29,593 bases of DNA from the NCBI GenBank assembly GCA_000175855.1, contig ACYB01000017.1:1-29593 (forward strand). The letters run 5' to 3'. The translations under genes and the position numbers were made by a program. Positions 134 to 28,195 of this stretch are shown one piece after another. Every line of letters starts with the position of its first letter. The first letter of the stretch is position 1. The stretch is from Raphidiopsis brookii D9 (lineage in GTDB: Bacteria; Cyanobacteriota; Cyanobacteriia; Cyanobacteriales; Nostocaceae). A model generated the notes under the pieces. It was not told the origin of the DNA. It made no database searches and was given only the letters and a program-made list of their open reading frames with translations.

Positions 134-710
134 AGGAGAAAAGCAAGTTTTGCCAGTGCACAAACTCAGGAGCATGGCGGAATTCACCCAGCGGTTTCCA
201 GATGTGAAGGAGGTGATTGTGAATGGTACGGAACCTCCAGTGCAACGTCCTCAAAACCGAGAACGCCAAAAGGAGTATTACTCGTGCAAGAAAAAGCAGC
301 ATACGTGCAAGCAGATTACAGTCAGCACCAGAAAGAAACGAGTGATTATTCTGACGAAAACCAGAGCAGGTAAGGTACATGACAAAAGACTACTCCAGGA
401 ATCGGAGATCGTGCAATACATTCCTGATGAGGTAGCAATAGAGGGAGATTTGGGTTTTCAGGGGTTGTAGAAAGAATTTGTCAATGTTCATCTGTCACAC
501 AAGAAACCGAAAGGTAAGGAGTTAACACAGCAGCAAAAACAGGAGAATCGGGAACTGAGTCGTCAGCGAGTTGTATGTGAGCATGCTCATTCTGGAATTA
601 AGAGATATAACTCTGTATATTGTGTGCACAGAAATTGTCTCCTCGATTTTGATGATCACTTAATGTTGGTCGCTGCAGGGTTATGGAACTTCTATTTGGA
701 TGCAGCATAA
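126..710 (+). pseudogene. IS5-family (DDE_Tnp_4 / Harbinger-like) transposase remnant, 5'-truncated, with an in-frame TAG at 468-470
   Basis: ORF 150-470 (..VIVNGTEPPVQRP..QKEYYSCKKKQHTCK..) continues in the same frame after the TAG as KEFVNVHLSHKKPKGKELTQQQKQENRELSRQRVVCEHAHSGIKRY.., with a stop at 708-710. The YSxKKKxHT and HKKPKxxELTxxQKxxN..R..VEH patterns are typical of this transposase family. The N-terminal HTH part is missing; the frame is closed by a TAA at 123-125. Confidence 0.7.
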
Positions 711-804: not shown

Positions 805-970
805 ACAAAGGGCTTTGTCTTGCTAAAAAACTGGGTACTAAAACGTAATTTTAATTAGTTGATGGGCTGTGGGCGTTTCGCTAAAGATTATGAAGTATTT
901 ATTACCTTAAAAAAATCTCAAAAACTTATCTAACTTGCCACAATCCTTATAAAGGTTAGGCGAATCGCAG
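805..970 (+). mobile_element. Degenerate 3'-end remnant of an IS5-type (DDE_Tnp_1, IS427/IS1031-like) transposase gene (remnant A)
   Basis: It translates with stops and frameshifts to ..KGFVLLKKLGTKT.. and LMGCGRFAKDYEVFITLKKSQKLI*LATILIKVRRI. This matches the canonical C-terminus ..RWVVERTFAWLxxxRRLxKDYExxxxxSEAxIYLAxIRLMLRRL. It is about 70% identical at DNA level to 5518-5632. Confidence 0.55.
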
Positions 971-1021: not shown

Positions 1022-1651
1022 CTAACGCATGTATGTGTTAAGTGTGTTTGGTGTTGATCTATAGAATAATCTTCGTGCAGTACCAAAGAACTCAGGACTG
1101 CTGAAATTACAAGAAGACCGTGAGTAATTGCATTCTACTTCTTCAAAAGCAGCAGAATCGTAATAAGTTTTCTCTGTTCCACCTGGTTCATCGTAATAAG
1201 CATGAACCATCGAAACGGAGGAAGGAGATAATGTTGTCATCGCTGATTGTACCCGGCGCCCATTCACAAGAAGAGTAACCTGACTAATTCCATCATAACT
1301 CAGTTCTATTCTGTTAATCGGTTGAAGACCTATTGGTCTTCCAGAACCTCCCCTATTGTTACCACAATTCATAAATGTATACCATTGCCCGTCCATGCCA
1401 CCTTTTTTCCCATAAGAAATACCAGCCCCACAATCATTACCTAAATTGAAATAAAAAGAGGCATAACCATATCTAGAGACTTTTATCTGTTGAGGTAATC
1501 TAAGACTTCCTCTAATCGATCCGTATGAGCCTCTACTTATTGAGCGAAAGCCGCTTCTTCCAACTTGAGCATAAGATGTAGAGTGAGGCATTGAACTGAT
1601 AACGATAGAAGTAAGCAGCACAGAACTTAGAAAGTAAAGAGACTTAAACAT
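1022..1651 (-). CDS. Secreted hypothetical protein (209 aa, N-terminal signal peptide, Gly/Arg/Ser-rich start of the mature part, 4 Cys)
   Basis: Complete ORF. A hydrophobic signal (MFKSLYFLSSVLLTSIVISS..SYA-Q) is present, with GAGG-like aggt 8 nt upstream of the ATG. I recognise no family. Confidence 0.6.
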   Translation of the reverse strand: MFKSLYFLSSVLLTSIVISSMPHSTSYAQVGRSGFRSISRGSYGSIRGSLRLPQQIKVSRYGYASFYFNLGNDCGAGISYGKKGGMDGQWYTFMNCGNNRGGSGRPIGLQPINRIELSYDGISQVTLLVNGRRVQSAMTTLSPSSVSMVHAYYDEPGGTEKTYYDSAAFEEVECNYSRSSCNFSSPEFFGTARRLFYRSTPNTLNTYMR

Positions 1652-1922: not shown

Positions 1923-2218
1923 TAATCAGATTTATGGTGTTCTTTTCCCTACAACTATTACTATTTCCTAACTCTCCAATAATGACAAGAGTTTGAGCAA
2001 CTTTAAAATTCATCCAACTGACACAATTATGTCTCCTTTTACTGATTAAACATTGTAACTTCATTTATATTATTTCCGCATTTCCCCATAACGTCGTATC
2101 AACGAGCTTTGTTTTTCAAGATATAATTAACACAATTATGTCTTTTTTTGTTTCTCTCTTCCTAGGGATGGTGAGAATCCAAAAAAATAGCCCCATAACC
2201 TAATGGGGCTAAAATCTA
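1923..2218. repeat. 296-bp direct repeat, copy 1 (partner 2447-2742, offset 524 bp)
   Basis: Base-by-base comparison shows about 93-95% identity over the full 296 bp. This includes the hairpin tagccccat-aaccta-atggggcta. Confidence 0.9.
2179..2211 (-). terminator. Rho-independent terminator downstream of the peptide gene
   Basis: A 9-bp perfect stem (2188-2196 / 2203-2211) with a 6-nt loop is followed on the minus strand by a T7 run (A-run 2181-2187 on plus). It lies 25 nt after the stop at 2236. Confidence 0.7.
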
Positions 2219-2235: not shown

Positions 2236-2412
2236 CTAGAACCAAGGGGTCCTTGGTTTTGGTCTAGGAATTGGCCATGGTTTAGGAATTGGCCAGAAAC
2301 ATCCACCCATCAAGTTAATTTCTGATCCTGTAAGTTCATTAAGATAGCTCTCAGAATCAGAGAACAAATCTGCACCAGCAGGACGTAAGTCGGAAATAGT
2401 GATATTAGCCAT
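2236..2412 (-). CDS. Double-glycine-leader precursor peptide (58 aa): 37-aa leader plus 21-aa Pro/Trp-rich cationic core
   Basis: MANITISDLRPAGADLFSDSESYLNELTGSEINLMGG | CFWPIPKPWPIPRPKPRTPWF. The leader resembles cyanobacterial GG-type bacteriocin leaders (ISDL.P.G.ELF.DSESFL.EL....I.GG). AAGGGA lies 7 nt upstream of the ATG at 2412. The upstream ATG at 2439 (ORF-track start) has no SD and adds MKLNQRETK. Confidence 0.7.
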   Translation of the reverse strand: MANITISDLRPAGADLFSDSESYLNELTGSEINLMGGCFWPIPKPWPIPRPKPRTPWF

Positions 2413-2446
2413 TTTTGTTTCCCTTTGATTAAGTTTCATTTTGAGG

Positions 2447-2742
2447 TAATCAGATTTATGGTGTTCTTTTCCCTACGACTATTACTATTTCCTAACTCTC
2501 CAATAATGACAAGAGGTTGAGCAACTTTAAAGTTCATCTAACTAGCACAATTATAGCTCTTTTTACCGAATAAACACTGTAACTTCATTTATATTATTTC
2601 CGCATTTCCCCATAACGTCGTATCAACGAGCTTTGTTTTTTAAGATACAATTAACACAATTATGTCTTTTTTTGTTTCTCTCTTCTTAGGGATGGTGGCA
2701 ATCCAAAAAAATAGCCCCATAACCTAATGGGGCTAAAATCTA
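2447..2742. repeat. 296-bp direct repeat, copy 2 (partner 1923-2218)
   Basis: See copy 1. It lies between the HopA1-like gene stop (2787) and the peptide start (2412). Confidence 0.9.
2703..2735 (-). terminator. Rho-independent terminator after the kinase/HopA1-like gene pair
   Basis: It has the same 9-bp stem (2712-2720 / 2727-2735) followed by a T-run on the minus strand (A-run 2705-2711 on plus). It lies 52 nt after the stop at 2787. Confidence 0.7.
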
Positions 2743-2786
2743 CAGATGAACCTATCACTCCTTGATTCCCATATAAGGGACTAATA

Positions 2787-3890
2787 TCAATCAGTCAACT
2801 CTAATCTTTGATAAACATTCTTAGAATCAGCATTTAAATAAGGACGCTGCCAATCAATTCCTAACTCAGAAAACTGCTCGCAAATAGCAGTCATCCGACC
2901 CGCTGCAGAATTCTCCTCCTGTTGCCAAGCCATCAGTAAACCATTGGCTATAATCTGACAGCGATTCATTCCAAAACTCTCCTCACTGCCAAACTTTTTG
3001 TCCGGTTCTTCCGCTAATCCCAAACCCGGTGCTAACTCGAGGGTGAACAAAGGTATTTCTTGCTTAAAAACAAACTGATTTTGGTGATAAACATTACCTA
3101 CAATCTCCCTCACCAATTCATAATCAGTTTTCCCAAAATAAAGCACCCCAGCATCATATCGTTGATAATCAACTGGATTATACAAAGCCTTAAAACTAAA
3201 AGGAATCCCCCTCTGATTCAACTTTTCAGTTAACCCAGCCATCACAGCCACTGCACCTTCGGGAGTAACATTAAAATAGATTCGCACCATGGCTTCCTCT
3301 CTCTGTAAACCAGCATTACCCACCGCCATATAAAAACCATTTTGCACTAAATTCTTGGGCATCAAAATTGATACAACATCACCCACAAATGCAGATTGTT
3401 CATATTCTTGAAGATGCTTGTCACGTTGGATATGTAATCGCAAACCACCCTTAGTTACAGCCAAACTCCCATCGGTTTCTTCTCTCAAAACTGACCACCC
3501 TGAATCAAAATAACCCTCACCCTTATTCGCTTTGTCTAACTGCAAATAAAAGTCCATAGATACACCAGCAAAACTACTATTTTCCAAATCTAATTGCTGA
3601 ACTTTATTCCCATAACCTAATGCCTGTAATTTTTGTGTCGACCCATTGTAATAAGTGCCATAAAGAAAACTCCGCAACTGTAAACTCATATACTTATCCT
3701 GCATTTCCTTGGGTAAAGCCTGAATCCGAGACAACATTTCAGTAGGCATTTCCCATGGTTGATAGTTCGGGTGACGAATCGAAAAATCAGCGGAAATCTC
3801 GACATTTTCAACAATATCTGATAAAACTTCCTTTAAGCGACGTTCAACTTCAGAGGCTAATTGATGAGATTGAGAATTAAGTAATGACAT
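2787..3890 (-). CDS. HopA1-effector-family-like protein (putative phospho-Ser/Thr lyase), 367 aa
   Basis: Complete ORF. The central block VRIYFNVTPEGAVAVMAGLTEKLNQRGIPFSFKALYNPVDYQRYDAGVLYFGKTDY matches my memory of bacterial proteins annotated as T3SS effector HopA1 family. It starts 25 nt after the kinase gene ends, which suggests an operon. The family call was not verified by search. Confidence 0.6.
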   Translation of the reverse strand: MSLLNSQSHQLASEVERRLKEVLSDIVENVEISADFSIRHPNYQPWEMPTEMLSRIQALPKEMQDKYMSLQLRSFLYGTYYNGSTQKLQALGYGNKVQQLDLENSSFAGVSMDFYLQLDKANKGEGYFDSGWSVLREETDGSLAVTKGGLRLHIQRDKHLQEYEQSAFVGDVVSILMPKNLVQNGFYMAVGNAGLQREEAMVRIYFNVTPEGAVAVMAGLTEKLNQRGIPFSFKALYNPVDYQRYDAGVLYFGKTDYELVREIVGNVYHQNQFVFKQEIPLFTLELAPGLGLAEEPDKKFGSEESFGMNRCQIIANGLLMAWQQEENSAAGRMTAICEQFSELGIDWQRPYLNADSKNVYQRLELTD

Positions 3891-3914
3891 GATTTTTCAA
3901 GATACTCAAGGATA

Positions 3915-5081
3915 TTAAACTTTGCCAACAACAGAAGAATTCATCTGATTTAACTGAGTAGCAGTAGCCCCAAAAATAGTGGGCATCGACAATTCAGGAC
4001 GACACAACAAAGCCTTGGCTACCTGAAGCATAGCAATTCCCGTATTATTAAAGGTTTTTTCATGCTGAACCATTGCTAAAATTGCAGTAATTAAAGAAAA
4101 ACCTGCCAACTGTACCACTTGCTTTAAGAAATCAGGTCGATATTTTAAGATTTCTGGGAAAGCTTCTAAATAAGCTAAAGTTAATCCACCGATAGATGGC
4201 TGAATTAATTCTAGGGGAGTAGTCGCTAGTCGCAAAGATTCTTCAATACTAAGAGAATTACTAATCACTAAGCTACCCAACCAAGTTTGTAGATAACTGG
4301 CGATCGCCATTCCCAAATCAAACGCTGGATCTCCCCAATCAGACCTTTCCCAATCAATCAAACGAATCACATTTTCATTAACATCTTCCCATTTTTGAAG
4401 TAAAAGAATGTTATTCAACTTCAAGTCATTGTGAGTTAGACAAATAGGAGAGATAGTTTTACTTAAGAGATTAACTGCTGCTTCTAAGCTATCATATCGT
4501 TGATAAAGAGCAAAAAACTTTAATCCACCCATGGGAACCAGTCCAAAAATTTCTGGACCTATCTGTTCCAAACTATTTAGTAATAGTGGGGATACCTTGG
4601 TTTTTCGAGCAAAATCTTGGGCAAAAAATTCCCTATAAATACTTTTATTCCAAGTTTCACGGTGAATTGTTGCCAAACAACTGCCAATTTGAGCAGCAAC
4701 CTGAGTAGGAAAGACATTCTTTTTAGAGTAGAATTTTGCTAAATCCTCATAATTATCCAGATAAGTAGAAACCAAAATTGAGTTCTCATCATCGTAGAGC
4801 AGTAATTCTGGCAGAAACCTACGCCAATGGTCTAATTCAGGAAAGTTATGCACAAAACTCGGGATTCGCCATTCCCCAAAAAACTCCTTCACCGTTTCCT
4901 TTTCTAAATTAATAAATTTTTCCTGTTTTACCAGTAACTTTCGACCCTCTGGTAAAGTCACCAATAAATTAAAATTTTTAGCCTGAATCTGCTCTACTCC
5001 TGGATTTTCTAGGGAGCGATCGCATAACTTTCTCTTGATAAGATACTCGTTGACATTTTGAGAACTTAAGATAAACTTCAC
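3915..5081 (-). CDS. Aminoglycoside-phosphotransferase/CotS-like protein-kinase-fold phosphotransferase, 388 aa
   Basis: It has the catalytic loop LTHNDLKLNNILL (HxDxxxxN) and the metal-binding IDWERSDWGDPAFDLG motif. Complete ORF. Confidence 0.8.
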   Translation of the reverse strand: MKFILSSQNVNEYLIKRKLCDRSLENPGVEQIQAKNFNLLVTLPEGRKLLVKQEKFINLEKETVKEFFGEWRIPSFVHNFPELDHWRRFLPELLLYDDENSILVSTYLDNYEDLAKFYSKKNVFPTQVAAQIGSCLATIHRETWNKSIYREFFAQDFARKTKVSPLLLNSLEQIGPEIFGLVPMGGLKFFALYQRYDSLEAAVNLLSKTISPICLTHNDLKLNNILLLQKWEDVNENVIRLIDWERSDWGDPAFDLGMAIASYLQTWLGSLVISNSLSIEESLRLATTPLELIQPSIGGLTLAYLEAFPEILKYRPDFLKQVVQLAGFSLITAILAMVQHEKTFNNTGIAMLQVAKALLCRPELSMPTIFGATATQLNQMNSSVVGKV

Positions 5082-5120: not shown

Positions 5121-5387
5121 TTATCTTACTTTCACTTCTGTTAAATCCCTAACCATATTTAATATCTTTGTAATGTAATTATTTGTATATCTGGTTAGCT
5201 TATAGAACCTACCCCTAATCATAACCAAGGCGTTTAAAAAGGCTTTACTAGCAAGTAAGACGAGGATGTTTTGGTATTTTTGTTCTCTGTACTGTTCGGT
5301 TTTTTCTCTTTCTGCCACCTGGCGAGCTTTTTGATGGTCTTCTTGGGTAAGAGTAATCAGGACTGATTTGAGCATATTAAGTTTCAC
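5121..5387 (-). CDS. Hypothetical 88-aa ORF, possibly an N-terminal fragment of a larger (DUF1822-like?) protein
   Basis: Only an ORF. ITLTQEDHQKARQVAERE..QKYQNILVLLASKAFLNAL weakly recalls DUF1822 N-termini. No clear RBS. Confidence 0.3.
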   Translation of the reverse strand: MKLNMLKSVLITLTQEDHQKARQVAEREKTEQYREQKYQNILVLLASKAFLNALVMIRGRFYKLTRYTNNYITKILNMVRDLTEVKVR

Positions 5388-5499: not shown

Positions 5500-5632
5500 A
5501 TCGCCCTTGAGAATTAGTTATTAACTTTTGGTTGGTTGATGGACTGCAGGCGTTTGGTTAGAGATTATGAATTATTACTCGAAACATCTAAAACTTTTAT
5601 CTACCTTGCCATAATCCGTATTAAAGATTGGG
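5500..5632 (+). mobile_element. 3'-end remnant of an IS5-type (IS427/IS1031-like) transposase gene (remnant B)
   Basis: It reads LLTFGWLMDCRRLVRDYELLLETSKTFIYLAIIRIKDW, the canonical IS5-family C-terminus. No upstream catalytic part is present. It has the same orientation as remnant A. Confidence 0.6.
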
Positions 5633-5685
5633 TACCACGGCCAAGCTTATTACAAAGAATCCAAGACCTCAACTCGGGGGAAATA
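5633..5685. repeat. Direct repeat copy 1: taccacggccaagcttattacaaagaatccaagacctcaactc..ggaaata
   Basis: The 43-bp core differs at 2 positions from 7935-7977. It directly follows IS remnant B. Confidence 0.85.
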
Positions 5686-5686
5686 C

Positions 5687-7988
5687 GTGACCCCAATTGA
5701 CAAAATTCCTGCCCACTTGTTAGCAAACTATGTTATACTCAGCCACAGTATGTCCTCGTATGTCTTGAATACTCTACCCAAATACCACCCTATGACCATT
5801 AACATCATACTCAGAGTATTAAACGGTAACTTCAATGAAGGATTCATTATAGATGTCATCACGGATGGAAAAACCGAACAACTCTCCATCATCCAAAACA
5901 GAAACATACCAAAGCTTTACAGTAAATGGCAATATATTTTACACCGCAACACAATACGTAAGATTTCTGACATAGAAGAACAAGAAACACACATAAGCAC
6001 AGAAAAGCTAAGAAATGCCAAAACAGAATTGGAAAAAGAGTATAAACAATGGCTCAATAACCAAAACATTGGTATGCTCATTAGCAACATGATAGAGTTG
6101 TCAACATCTTCCCCTAGCCAGTCCCCTCAAAACCCAAATTTAATTCGTATTCAACTTATCCTTTCAGATACCCTTAATCCTAATGCTCAACAAGATAACG
6201 ATATTCTCCGTAGACTGCCCTGGAATGCCTACTTGAGTAGTTATATTCGTTTTAACAATTATGATACAACCTTCCTCCTATCCAAAGATCATACCTCCAC
6301 ACCTTCCCATCCAAATTTATTTAGTTCAAACCCACCGAAAATCCTAGCCATATTTGGTGGACACCAGGGGGAATTGGCATGCAGTCAAGCTGATGAAGCC
6401 AATAGACTCAAAGAAATCTGTGAACCCAACGGTGCAACCGTCATCTTCAGAAACATCACAGATAGAAACGAATTTCATCAACTACTAATCAATGACAATT
6501 ATGACATCCTATTCTACTCCGGACACAGTACCAGTGACCAGGGAGGCACAATTCAATTTGAACAAGAAACCTCCATCATTCGGGATTTTAAAAATGACCT
6601 CATCCGTGCGGTAAAAAAAGGAATTAAAAATAGCTATTTTTAACTCCTGTGACGGACTGAAAATAGCAGACTTTCTTATAGAAGAAGTGGGGATGCCAGC
6701 CGTCATCGTCATGAAGGAACCAGTACCAGACGAATTTGCCCGGGAATTTTTAGAAAGGTTTTTAATCCATTTTGTAAAAGAATGCAATTTTCTCTCAGTA
6801 GCAGTAGAAAAAGCTGCAAAAGACATTCTTTATAAGGAAGATCAAGAATTTCCTGGGGCAACCTGGTTACCCATAACCTACTATTCAAATGCAAAATCAG
6901 AAGAATTTACCTGGAGTAAAAAAAATCAAATATACAAAAACCGTATAGATATTAAAATCCACAACTACTTATACCAAAGACAAGAAGAAAACTCTCTTTG
7001 TCCTTACCAGGGACTATTTCACTTCGGACCAGAAGAAGCAGAATATTTCTTCGGGCGACAAATATTTATCGAACAACTATATGAAGCCACACAAAACCGT
7101 AAATTTATCCCCATCCTTGGTGCATCTGGCAGTGGTAAATCTTCAGTAGTATTAGCGGGGTTAGTACCAAAATTAAAAAACCAAGGCAACTGGGAATTTA
7201 CCTACTTCAGACCAGGGAAAGAACCCTTCCCTGCCCTAGCCACAGCCCTAATACCCCTTCTGTATACCTCAGAATTAGACACTATAGAAAAAATGGCTCA
7301 AGGGCGTATCTTAGCCACACACCTCCAAACAGGAACCATCCCCTTATCCGACGTTTTCACTCAAATCCAACAAAAACACCCCACAGAAAAAGTATTAATC
7401 ATAGCCGACCAATTTGAAGAGATTTACACCATGTGTCCAGAGCCAGAAACTCGCCAGCAATTTCTGGATTGCCTGATAGCTAGTCTTTCAATACCCAACA
7501 GCCCGATAGTATTAGTAACAACCATGCGGGCCGACTTTCTCTCGGATGCGCTATCTTATAGACCCTTTGGCGACACATTGCAAAACGCAGACCTCAAAAT
7601 TCTAGCCATGAACCGGGAAGAATTGACAGAAGTAATTATAAAACCAGCGGAAAAACTAGGAGTATCATTTGAACAGGGACTAGCAGCCAGAATCCTAAAT
7701 GACCTAGAACAGCAACCGGGGAATTTACCCCTACTAGAATTTGCCCTGACACAACTGTGGAATCAACACCATGAGTGGCAATTAACCCACAATGCCTACG
7801 AAAAGATTGGCCAAGTACAAGGAGCATTAGCCCGCTACGCAGATGAAAAATATAGTAACCTAACAAAAACAGAACAAGAAACAGTAGAAGTATTGCATGA
7901 AGCCCTAATTCGAGATTGGGGAGAAAGGATTGAATACCACAGCCAAGCTTATTACAAAGAACCCAAGACCTCAACTCTCAGGAAATAG
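5687..7988 (+). pseudogene. CHAT protease domain - nSTAND-type P-loop NTPase (STAND) gene, frameshifted and 3'-truncated
   Basis: ORF 5687-6643 ends ..DILFYSGHSTSD..AVKKGIKNSYF*. The +1 frame then continues IAIFNSCDGLKIADFL..GMPAVIVMKEPVPDEFAREF, so the CHAT catalytic His (SGHS) and Cys (NSCDG) lie on either side of a 1-nt frameshift within 6615-6640 (A-runs). ORF 6687-7988 carries CPYQGLFHFGPEEAEYFFGRQ..ILGASGSGKSSVVLAGLVPKL (Walker A), IIADQFEE (Walker B) and HEALIRDW. It then stops inside the 43-bp repeat, with no WD40/TPR sensor repeats. Confidence 0.75.
7935..7987. repeat. Direct repeat copy 2 (partner 5633-5685)
   Basis: See copy 1. It replaces the expected 3' continuation of the STAND gene. 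Confidence 0.85.
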
Positions 7989-27622: not shown

Positions 27623-28195
27623 TTGACATCCTTAACCTCCTATTCTTCCCTAACCAACTTTTTTCCTGAGACCCTTGTCCTGGAAGTGAGAAATCTAATG
27701 TATGCTTATACAAACAAGTATACAATCTTAAAAAATATTTCATTTAAATTAAAAACAGGTGATCGGGTGGCTTTGATTGGTGCTACTGGTTCAGGGAAAA
27801 GCACTCTTTTAGAAAACCTAATTGGGTTAAAGTATCCCCAGAGTGGCACAATTACCATCAATGGGATTCCGGTGGAGCCAAACACCGTGGCAAAAATACG
27901 TAAACAAATTGGATTTGTCTTTCAGGATGCCAATGATCAACTATTTATGCCAACAGTATTAGAAGATATTACCTTTGGACCGCTCAATTATGGTGTCGCA
28001 CCAGCAGTAGCTAAAGAAAATGCTAGACAACTACTAGCTGATTTTGGCTTAGAAAAATATGCCCATCGTTCCCATCATGAACTATCCGGAGGTCAAAGAC
28101 GTTTAGCTGCAATTGCATCAGTATTAGCGTTAGAGCCAGAAATCTTGATTTTAGACGAACCAACCACTGGACTAGATCCAATACTGTTCGGTTAA
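27623..28195 (+). pseudogene. cbiO: ECF/ABC ATPase CbiO, truncated right after Walker B
   Basis: Walker A GATGSGKST, Q-loop, signature LSGGQRR and Walker B ILILDEPTTGLDP are present. The frame then reads ILFG* and the H-loop/C-terminal domain is missing (190 aa versus about 250-280 expected). The TTG start is uncertain. Confidence 0.8.

Follow-up and report, generated by a model that had tools for sequence, protein, structure and literature searches.

Putative class V-like dehydratase genes and a double-glycine precursor in Raphidiopsis brookii D9: a truncated, rearranged copy of a widespread cyanobacterial cluster type

Adjacent genes for a kinase and a HopA1-like lyase, together with a small peptide gene, are present on a contig of the cyanobacterium Raphidiopsis brookii D9 (29,593 bp; the whole contig was analysed and is called the window below). 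The closest described enzymes are CaoK/CaoY and LxmK/LxmY, which dehydrate serine and threonine by phosphorylation followed by elimination (PMC9486802, PMC12141560). The LxmK-LxmY heterodimer, the lexapeptide dehydratase, is represented by structure 9DK1 (PMC12141560). In CaoY, phosphate elimination needs R187 and K219, aided by R229 and H57, and Y236 is a conserved tyrosine (PMC9486802). The known class Va clusters all combine LanK, LanY, LanD and LanX (PMC11186320). A second kinase and HopA1-like lyase pair, TvaC/TvaD (ThoC/ThoD), is responsible for Ser/Thr dehydration in thioamitides (PMC8153245, PMC9486802). Two earlier descriptions concern cyanobacteria: Group II bacteriocin clusters, defined in 2011 by Wang, Fewer and Sivonen, who counted one in D9 (PMC3140520), and the "type-B" putative LanA open reading frames (ORFs) of Liang et al. 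(2022), which lie beside LanK-LanY and are all cyanobacterial (PMC9486802).

On the minus strand of the window, three co-oriented and intact ORFs encode the kinase, the HopA1-like protein and the peptide; their products are identical to EFA73822.1, EFA73821.1 and EFA73820.1/CRD_01030, respectively. The locus is probably the enzyme half, accompanied by a single precursor, of a Group II/type-B class-V-like cluster for a ribosomally made and post-translationally modified peptide (RiPP), in which Thr18 of the peptide core would be dehydrated under leader guidance before cleavage at the double-glycine (GG) site and export. The principal elements are the following.

3915 to 5081, minus strand: putative LanK/LxmK-like APH-fold Ser/Thr peptide kinase, 388 amino acids, GTG start, EFA73822.1 (Pfam, NCBIfam, fold)
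2787 to 3890, minus strand: putative LanY/LxmY-like HopA1-family phosphoSer/Thr lyase, 367 amino acids, EFA73821.1 (Pfam, PDB, fold)
2302 to 2412, minus strand: leader of the precursor CRD_01030, 37 amino acids, ending in GG (leader family found in 74 of 80 loci)
2236 to 2301, minus strand: core CFWPIPKPWPIPRPKPRTPWF, 21 amino acids and the stop codon, with Thr18-Pro19 as candidate dehydration site

The gap between the kinase and HopA1 genes is 24 nucleotides (nt), and a spacer of 347 nt separates the HopA1 gene from the peptide ORF. This ORF (2236-2439) comprises 67 codons for amino acids; homologues and the GenBank entry start at the second ATG, at 2412, which gives 58 residues. The leader reads MANITISDLRPAGADLFSDSESYLNELTGSEINLMGG, with GG at leader positions 36-37, and the core holds a single cysteine (C1) and a single threonine (T18), the latter being its sole hydroxyl residue and followed by Pro19. 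This anatomy agrees with a first-pass annotation of the same DNA, which had described three co-oriented minus-strand genes for an APH/CotS-fold kinase, a HopA1-like protein and a 58-residue GG-leader peptide with one threonine and one cysteine in its core, and had put the gap in front of the HopA1 gene at 25 nt.

The kinase matched Pfam APH (PF01636; E = 1.3e-10) and, over its full length, the NCBIfam model LxmK (NF038156; E = 1.2e-23), where its score of 83.7 bits stays under the equivalog cut-off of 315. It carries the motifs HNDLKLNN and IDWE..GDPAFDLG, and H217, D219, N224, D243 and the beta3 lysine K52 were invariant across 20 homologues, so that the HxDxxxxN...D signature of an LxmK/CaoK-related APH-fold kinase is intact. 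A sequence match in the Protein Data Bank (PDB) was obtained to 9DK1 chain A (E = 0.026). The top Foldseek match of its AlphaFold2 model in the PDB was LxmK (9dk3_A; E = 2.7e-11, TM-scores 0.67/0.75), with methylthioribose and choline kinases as the next matches. The HopA1-like protein matched Pfam HopA1 (PF17914; E = 4e-65), its best sequence match in the PDB was LxmY (9dk1_B; E = 4.5e-8), and its AlphaFold2 model was again closest to LxmY (9dk3_B; E = 6e-14, TM-scores 0.59/0.67), followed by HopA1 (4rsx/4rsw) and then by class III lyase domains. Both models were built from cyanobacterial alignments (pLDDT 72 and 71). The two Pfam matches bear out the family assignments of the first-pass annotation, for which they had been proposed as a check.

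The catalytic residues point in the same direction. R203, K234, R244 and Y251 of the lyase were invariant among 17 cyanobacterial homologues; the last three are identical residues in the alignment with LxmY, and all four match R187, K219, R229 and Y236 of CaoY by the same or near-identical spacing. The protein is thus an LxmY/CaoY-related HopA1-fold lyase with its catalytic residues in place. As in the lexapeptide (LxmK-LxmY, 9DK1) and cacaoidin (CaoK-CaoY) systems, the genes for the APH-fold kinase and the HopA1-fold lyase are adjacent, and those systems supply the best sequence and fold matches; the Arg/Lys/Arg/Tyr set of the lyase and the HxDxxxxN...D motif of the kinase are likewise conserved, and a short leader-bearing precursor is encoded nearby. 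The LxmK-LxmY matches and the invariant catalytic residues together establish the LanK/LanY fold and catalytic equipment of the window proteins, for which we infer a LanK/LanY-type dehydratase activity.

The linkage of the three genes was evaluated in a scan with a HopA1 alignment, using one genome per species. A total of 405 relatives were confirmed, so that the cassette is present in 405 cyanobacterial species genomes of the collection scanned, among them those of bloom-forming taxa such as Microcystis, Raphidiopsis/Cylindrospermopsis, Nodularia, Arthrospira and Trichodesmium; the best 80 loci, all of them cyanobacterial, were analysed further. The kinase gene was directly upstream of HopA1 in 79 of the 80, the lone exception being cut by a contig end. 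Peptides of the window leader family (158 ORFs, E down to 6e-14) were found in 74 loci, and the window peptide is therefore not a chance ORF. Nearly all of these ORFs are co-oriented with the enzyme genes; they usually lie either downstream of HopA1, at a distance of 0.4-4 kb, or immediately ahead of the kinase gene, and tandem arrays of 2-6 are frequent. In the reverse direction, when long contigs were sampled by the peptide, APH and HopA1 genes lay immediately upstream in five of six loci. At the sixth, in Cylindrospermopsis raciborskii CENA302, the enzyme pair is on another contig of the same genome and an ISL3 element is located at the split. The two samplings bear out a further suggestion of the first-pass annotation, namely that kinase/HopA1 pairs elsewhere should neighbour small peptides. 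Adjacent kinase and lyase genes co-occur with a leader-bearing precursor in nearly all of the loci, and we are highly confident that the three genes form one functional family unit.

Clustering of neighbouring ORFs combined with Pfam searches revealed a canonical layout: kinase, HopA1 and precursors on one strand, followed on the opposite strand by an export set comprising a SurA-like parvulin peptidyl-prolyl isomerase (67 of the 80 loci), HlyD (63), a C39-peptidase ATP-binding cassette (ABC) transporter (62) and a helix-turn-helix (HTH) protein with an HTH_32 domain (51), so that SurA lies next to the precursors and the HTH gene is outermost. The transporter is of the long type, with an N-terminal cyclic nucleotide monophosphate (cNMP)-binding domain. 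The leader family was also accompanied by a linked C39-ABC gene in L081, L082, L085, L086 and L088 (handles of the loci and contigs analysed), and it has both features of double-glycine leaders, the GG end and a genomic linkage to C39-ABC across the family. This layout matches the domain set of Group II, in which a long C39-ABC with a cNMP/CAP_ED domain, HlyD, SurA rotamase, an APH_ChoK_like protein, a COG3415 HTH protein and GG precursors were described (PMC3140520). The window itself contains the APH_ChoK_like kinase and a double-glycine precursor of this definition; the long C39-ABC (CAP_ED/cNMP), HlyD and SurA are absent from it and present in 62-67 of the 80 loci and in CENA302. Unlike Group II as described, in which the HopA1 domain went unrecognised in 2011, the window is limited to the APH kinase, HopA1 and a single precursor, and CRD_01030 is missing from the D9 precursor table of that paper (PMC3140520).

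The peptide family resembles the type-B LanA set as well, since both consist of short cyanobacterial ORFs with a common leader near co-occurring LanK-LanY genes (PMC9486802). The survey was restricted to ORFs containing Cys as well as Ser/Thr, and none of its products was characterised, whereas the family found here is broader, 62 of its 151 distinct cores being free of cysteine. The window peptide family is most probably the type-B LanA family, the identity of the two sequence sets being a matter of deduction. Because genome mining had flagged the cluster type in 2011 and again in 2022, it is not categorically new, and the first-pass view of an undescribed cassette does not hold (PMC3140520, PMC9486802). 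Nor is its compactness a design: the canonical cluster has SurA, HlyD, C39-ABC and HTH genes, whose linkage was lost in D9 by rearrangement, and what remains in D9 is a truncated and rearranged version of a cluster type that is widespread. What is new here is how broad and hypervariable the precursor library is, the enrichment of [ST]-Pro in the cores, the conserved control region, and the reconstructed origin of the D9 precursor and its orphan cassette.

The precursor family was examined through its 151 distinct cores. The leaders shared a mean pairwise identity of 49%, whereas the cores shared 19%, against a shuffled baseline of 18%. This pattern is typical of a RiPP precursor library. The proline-rich core, which the first-pass annotation had counted, with the GG leader and the kinase/HopA1 pair, as part of a combination matching no RiPP class known to it, is one arbitrary member of a hypervariable repertoire and does not define a class. 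Ser/Thr was present in 150 of the 151 cores, and threonine made up 11.2% of core residues versus 5.6% in the leaders. The dipeptide [ST]P occurred 101 times, compared with 52.6 +/- 5.8 in shuffled cores (maximum of 72 in 2000 shuffles), which corresponds to an approximately 2-fold enrichment, and 34 cores start with x-[ST]-P right behind the GG site. These core data support a leader-guided modification of Ser/Thr and hint at a Ser/Thr-Pro site preference of the putative dehydratase, which is a new observation. The leader matched no Pfam or NCBIfam model.

Prochlorosins provide a well-known parallel: one enzyme system, ProcM, serves many precursors whose conserved leaders end at a GG site and whose cores are hypervariable, with export through a C39-ABC transporter. 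The present family shares the conserved leaders, the hypervariable cores and the one enzyme system for many precursors. Unlike the D9 system, prochlorosins are made by a LanM enzyme from precursors with a Nif11-type leader, and thioether rings are their defined product.

The same core data bear on the proposal that the peptide stays unmodified and acts as a double-glycine bacteriocin of class II type or as a signal, with the enzyme pair acting elsewhere (on the leader DSES serines, the exporter or a protein) or with the kinase serving as an immunity or inactivation enzyme. Many cores do look like hydrophobic Gly/Ala-rich class II bacteriocins, the family protein P0190 weakly matches Bacteriocin_IIc (E = 0.013), one core lacks Ser/Thr, and Group I clusters share the transporter/SurA/HlyD set without a kinase (PMC3140520). 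However, the cores are enriched in Ser/Thr and in [ST]P, the catalytic residues of the lyase are strictly conserved, and the leader type and the enzyme pair are tightly linked in both directions. The DSES serines of the leader were rejected as substrate because they are not conserved as Ser/Thr, being replaced in the variants DYET, GYEN, DEET and DAET. We regard an unmodified peptide as very unlikely.

A separate question is whether the cysteine of the window core becomes part of a thioether. The first-pass annotation had suggested that the pair modifies the adjacent peptide, possibly yielding a single very large methyllanthionine ring between Cys1 and Thr18. The first part stands insofar as a LanK/LanY-type pair is functionally linked to the GG-leader peptide; the ring is speculation that found no support. 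A true class V lanthipeptide, with Cys1 added to dehydrobutyrine (Dhb) at position 18 as one methyllanthionine macrocycle, would be in keeping with exactly one Cys and one Thr in the window core, with the presence of cysteine in 89 of the 151 family cores, and with the class V triantimycins, in which methyllanthionine can form spontaneously (PMC11186320). Against it, LanX, LanC and LanD were encoded neither in the window nor among the frequent neighbours of the 80 loci, whereas known class Va clusters all have LanK/Y/D/X and close their rings from short (S/T)2X2C or (S/T)X4C motifs (PMC11186320). No precedent was found for an 18-residue ring spanning a Pro-rich segment, and the 62 Cys-free cores argue that a thioether is not the common outcome of the family. 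We regard this macrocycle as quite unlikely in D9.

The missing genes also set the locus apart from the described classes. Family profile scans across the 29.6-kb window revealed no cyclase, YcaO or C39-ABC exporter gene, as the first-pass annotation had noted for a LanC/LxmX-like cyclase, YcaO and C39-ABC, and phmmer searches with the window kinase (E <= 10) found no further APH-like ORF that could serve as LanX in the 80 loci. Since LanD and LanX are absent from the window and from the frequent neighbour families, the locus does not belong to class V proper. Unlike the LxmKY and CaoKY systems, the D9 locus lacks the LanX cyclase, the LanD decarboxylase, LanJ and a methyltransferase, and its GG-type leader, for cleavage by C39-ABC, is unrelated to the actinobacterial type-A leader. 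The cyanobacterial host, the hypervariable cores and the many cores without Cys are further differences from actinobacterial class V systems. Thioamitide clusters need YcaO/TfuA and further enzymes, and no YcaO/TfuA ORF is present in the window.

The mechanism that we propose starts with the kinase and the HopA1-like lyase pairing as a LanK-LanY-type heterodimeric dehydratase, by homology to CaoKY/LxmKY. The dehydratase would be recruited through the conserved leader M-A-N-I-x-I-S-D-L-x-P-x-G-x-D-L-F-x-D-S-E-S-Y-L-x-E-L...GG; the kinase would phosphorylate core Ser/Thr at the expense of ATP, and the lyase would remove the phosphate by beta-elimination, giving dehydroalanine (Dha) or Dhb. In D9 the sole site would be Thr18, in the context R-T-P-W-F, and its conversion to Dhb appears likely in view of the conserved leaders, the hypervariable Ser/Thr-bearing cores and the [ST]-Pro enrichment. 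The leader would then be removed after GG by a C39-peptidase ABC exporter upon secretion. The product would be a 21-residue cationic Pro/Trp-rich peptide with Dhb18, to which the free Cys1 might or might not add, and which presumably resembles proline-rich antimicrobial peptides. With one Thr and one Cys, the D9 peptide is an unusually simple substrate.

Extended to the whole family, the proposal becomes bolder: the cyanobacterial LanK/LanY may be a promiscuous leader-guided dehydratase that, in a prochlorosin-like manner and with class V chemistry, turns a GG-leader library into secreted Dha/Dhb peptides, mostly without lanthionine and with a [Ser/Thr]-Pro preference, perhaps together with the parvulin-type SurA-like isomerase. 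We consider this generalisation possible but doubtful. If the proposed chemistry is true, this would be a very widespread RiPP system that uses class V machinery, in the absence of the class V cyclase set, to form dehydroamino acids on hundreds of cores unrelated to one another. A SurA-like parvulin isomerase (PF00639) is conserved in the cluster (e.g., L001 5723-6463 and L081 11281-12012). The parvulin Pin1 is specific for phosphoSer/Thr-Pro, and given the [Ser/Thr]-Pro-rich cores, a functional link between SurA and the dehydratase is conceivable.

The pair might instead leave a stable phosphorylation, or the dehydroamino acid might be processed further by enzymes encoded elsewhere, through reduction to a D-residue or into a kintamdin-like beta-enamino acid. 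Kintamdin beta-enamino acid formation indeed uses a kinase/HopA1 pair (PMC9415263), and an aldo/keto-reductase-like gene follows HopA1 in 20 of the 80 loci. On the other hand, none of the extra genes is in the window, and the shared core set consists only of kinase, lyase, peptide and export genes, which makes such chemistry highly improbable for D9. The aldo/keto-reductase-like protein (338 amino acids, directly after HopA1, e.g., L074 9973-10989; Aldo_ket_red, E = 7.6e-6) is a candidate Dha/Dhb reductase analogous to LanJ.

The history of the D9 locus was reconstructed by comparison with the sister strain CENA302, whose kinase is 100% identical to that of D9. In CENA302 contig L081, the order is an ISL3 transposase, a truncated precursor 5' region, the precursor P0122 (core LTPIVIRVVIPLVIRVVIKIGK) and a second precursor, after which come a full 5' region, a third precursor and the SurA-HlyD-C39-ABC-HTH set. 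The second precursor (L081 10323-10520) has exactly the core CFWPIPKPWPIPRPKPRTPWF, with a different leader N-terminus. Window positions 2313-2641 are 99.1% identical in DNA to the 5' part of the P0122 leader and its upstream region, and positions 1923-2367 are 99.6% identical to L081 10833-10389, which covers the 3' part of the second precursor and the 5' region downstream of it. With a P0122-like 5' part and a second-precursor-like 3' part, the D9 precursor is most simply explained as a deletion chimera formed from two tandem precursors, with recombination in the conserved DSESYLNELT-coding stretch. The homology ends at 1922/1923, about 35 nt short of the ATG of the third precursor, and the 5' region left there, now an orphan, is to judge from the alignment the one that controlled the third precursor, which has been lost. 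A degenerate second precursor at 1652-1922 was considered and rejected; the similarities there are short, out of order and due to chance, and the breakpoint at 1922/1923 is clean.

The enzyme half tells a complementary story. The CENA302 HopA1 protein matches that of D9 through residue 345 and is then interrupted (L084, about 7037-7164), the contig ending 57 nt past the stop, whereas the D9 lyase retains the family-typical C-terminus; D9 therefore keeps the ancestral HopA1-precursor junction. The ISL3 transposase of CENA302 (L081 8535-9755) abuts the truncated precursor 5' region, and the split of the CENA302 cluster looks like an insertion sequence-mediated event. The cluster has been broken in the Raphidiopsis/Cylindrospermopsis lineage, with D9 retaining kinase, lyase and precursor and its array cut at 1922. 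As the linkage is lost, export in D9 would need a C39 transporter from elsewhere in the genome. The comparison of the two strains illustrates how clusters break up and how new precursors emerge through recombination of tandem genes with conserved leaders.

Such a history invites the reading that the D9 cassette is an orphaned, decaying remnant, in which the family function is unchanged and D9 neither makes nor exports a mature peptide. The contig has no transporter half, the precursor is a chimera in an array truncated at 1922, the neighbouring genes are damaged (a CHAT/nSTAND1 gene in two pieces, a fragmentary DDE transposase gene), and decayed SurA genes and missing transporters are seen in Microcystis relatives too. 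Yet the three ORFs are intact, as are the promoter and terminator elements; the lyase is identical to its CENA302 counterpart through residue 345, with a family-typical end, and other C39-ABC clusters of D9, which was listed with four C39-type clusters by Wang et al. in 2011 (PMC3140520), could act in trans. The DNA of the two strains, at about 99% identity, is too close for decay to be visible. A non-productive remnant has a real chance of being the correct description of D9, although we hold it to be unlikely.

Several points weigh against a dehydrated, exported peptide in D9. Identity to LxmK and LxmY is approximately 18-22% and the LxmK score of the kinase falls far under the equivalog cut-off; the chemistry of the cyanobacterial pair is deduced by homology only, and our literature search, outside the scope of which most subscription-journal papers lay, found no cyanobacterial member with a reported product or enzyme activity. 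One family core, from Microcystis (L004), has no Ser/Thr at all, and the window core offers just one hydroxyl residue. The precursor gene is recombinant, and pseudogenes and a transposase fragment occur in the region around it. Finally, the 90% protein clusters of the CENA302 SurA, HlyD, C39-ABC and HTH proteins contained no D9 member, and the D9 peptide may therefore lack processing and export.

The peptide gene is flanked by a direct repeat, and the terminator-containing 296-bp repeat of the first-pass annotation proved real, with two copies that are 94% identical over 296 nt. The corresponding elements are listed below.

2712 to 2735, minus strand: terminator-like hairpin and T7 after the HopA1 gene, kept in the Microcystis and Cylindrospermopsis copies
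2447 to 2742, minus strand: precursor 5' regulatory region, repeat copy A (terminator, two GACATAATTGTG-type boxes, promoter-like element and 5' untranslated region)
2188 to 2211, minus strand: terminator-like hairpin and T7 after the precursor gene
1923 to 2218, minus strand: orphan second precursor 5' regulatory region, repeat copy B, ending at the breakpoint 1922/1923

Each copy opens with the hairpin and T-run, which terminates the preceding gene, and continues with a conserved -35/-10 pair (promoter-like TTGTCA-17-AATAGT; 2484-2512 in copy A) and a short 5' untranslated region. The repeat is 77-82% identical in DNA to the counterpart region of Microcystis and Arthrospira and 99% identical to that of C. 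raciborskii, and parts of it recur ahead of each precursor and of the kinase gene in Okeania and Trichodesmium. Two GACATAATTGTG-type boxes, spaced by about 110 nt, are present in every precursor 5' region; the first one is palindromic. The GACATAATTGTG(T/C) box lies at about 2642-2666 in the window, with its copy at about 2118-2142, and it is also found upstream of the kinase genes of L003, L006, L007, L008 and L009 (Okeania, Trichodesmium, Microcystis). This box may be the operator for the HTH_32 protein of the cluster, and regulation of the precursor genes by a DNA-binding protein, with the HTH protein as candidate, is a reasonable idea on the basis of these motifs. A structured RNA or riboswitch was rejected: the 296-nt repeat gave 0 Rfam matches, and RNAalifold on six homologous regions returned an unfavourable covariation term (+1.75) with one compensatory pair only. 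The conservation of the repeat fits DNA-level regulatory boxes together with a promoter and a terminator.

The D9 enzymes are most closely related to those of Arthrospira platensis PCC 7345 and Microcystis (86-88% amino acid identity), whereas other Nostocales reach about 60%; this difference suggests horizontal exchange of the cassette among bloom-forming taxa. In Microcystis, L003 (12093-12383) and L005 (5739-6056) carry SurA remnants of 96-105 amino acids without HlyD and C39-ABC, and other loci (NIES-2549, L082) are complete. The export half of the cluster seems to have been lost repeatedly.

Approximately 10 loci (L015, L021, L030, L031, L034/L036, L053, L063, L065, L070, L077) contain a second, divergent kinase-HopA1 pair, for which comparison with the window proteins gave E-values of about 1e-60 to 1e-88. 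This pair follows precursors with MANIKVNDIKP-type leaders and Cys/Ser/Thr-rich, lanthipeptide-like cores, an association that suggests two enzyme and precursor subfamilies. Among the few conserved core types is one with a duplicated S-I-T-I-C-W motif (AGSITICWQNDKTxxRSITICW) behind the same leader as in the window, which recurs in Microcystis and metagenomes (P0144, P0148, P0153, P0154, P0157, P0166, P0179, P0239 and the L008/L009 peptides).

The rest of the contig is of housekeeping content (a protochlorophyllide-reductase-like subunit, gcvP, ribH, a CCA-adding enzyme, FTR1 and cbiMQO). No remnants of SurA, HlyD or C39-ABC were found in the window, where the sole ABC match was an unrelated CbiO-type ATPase (27623-28195). 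An 88-residue ORF upstream of the kinase gene (5121-5387) was rejected as a conserved partner, with homologues in 0 of the 80 loci, as was a 209-residue ORF (1022-1651, minus strand), likewise with homologues in 0 of the 80 and no Pfam or NCBIfam match. The latter has a signal-peptide-like N-terminus and might now be driven by the orphan repeat copy B, which bears a promoter and is located 271 nt upstream of it.

Near the contig end, a DDE_Tnp_4 transposase fragment (150-470, plus strand; Pfam E = 1.7e-14) fits a rearrangement downstream of the cassette. On its other side, a STAND-NTPase gene of CHAT/nSTAND1 type is split (5687-6643 and 6687-7988, plus strand) and lacks the WD40 tail; the CENA302 orthologue is an intact CHAT-nSTAND1-WD40 protein of 1345 amino acids (L084 62-4099), and the D9 copy is probably a pseudogene. 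A short dispersed repeat relates window positions 849-899 to 5526-5576 (80% identical). Positions 5621-5735 are 97% identical to L081 17114-17228, a stretch immediately past the HTH gene in the transporter locus of CENA302, so that the same dispersed element borders the reconstructed ancestral cluster on its two outer sides. This element could be a recombination substrate or resemble a miniature inverted-repeat transposable element.

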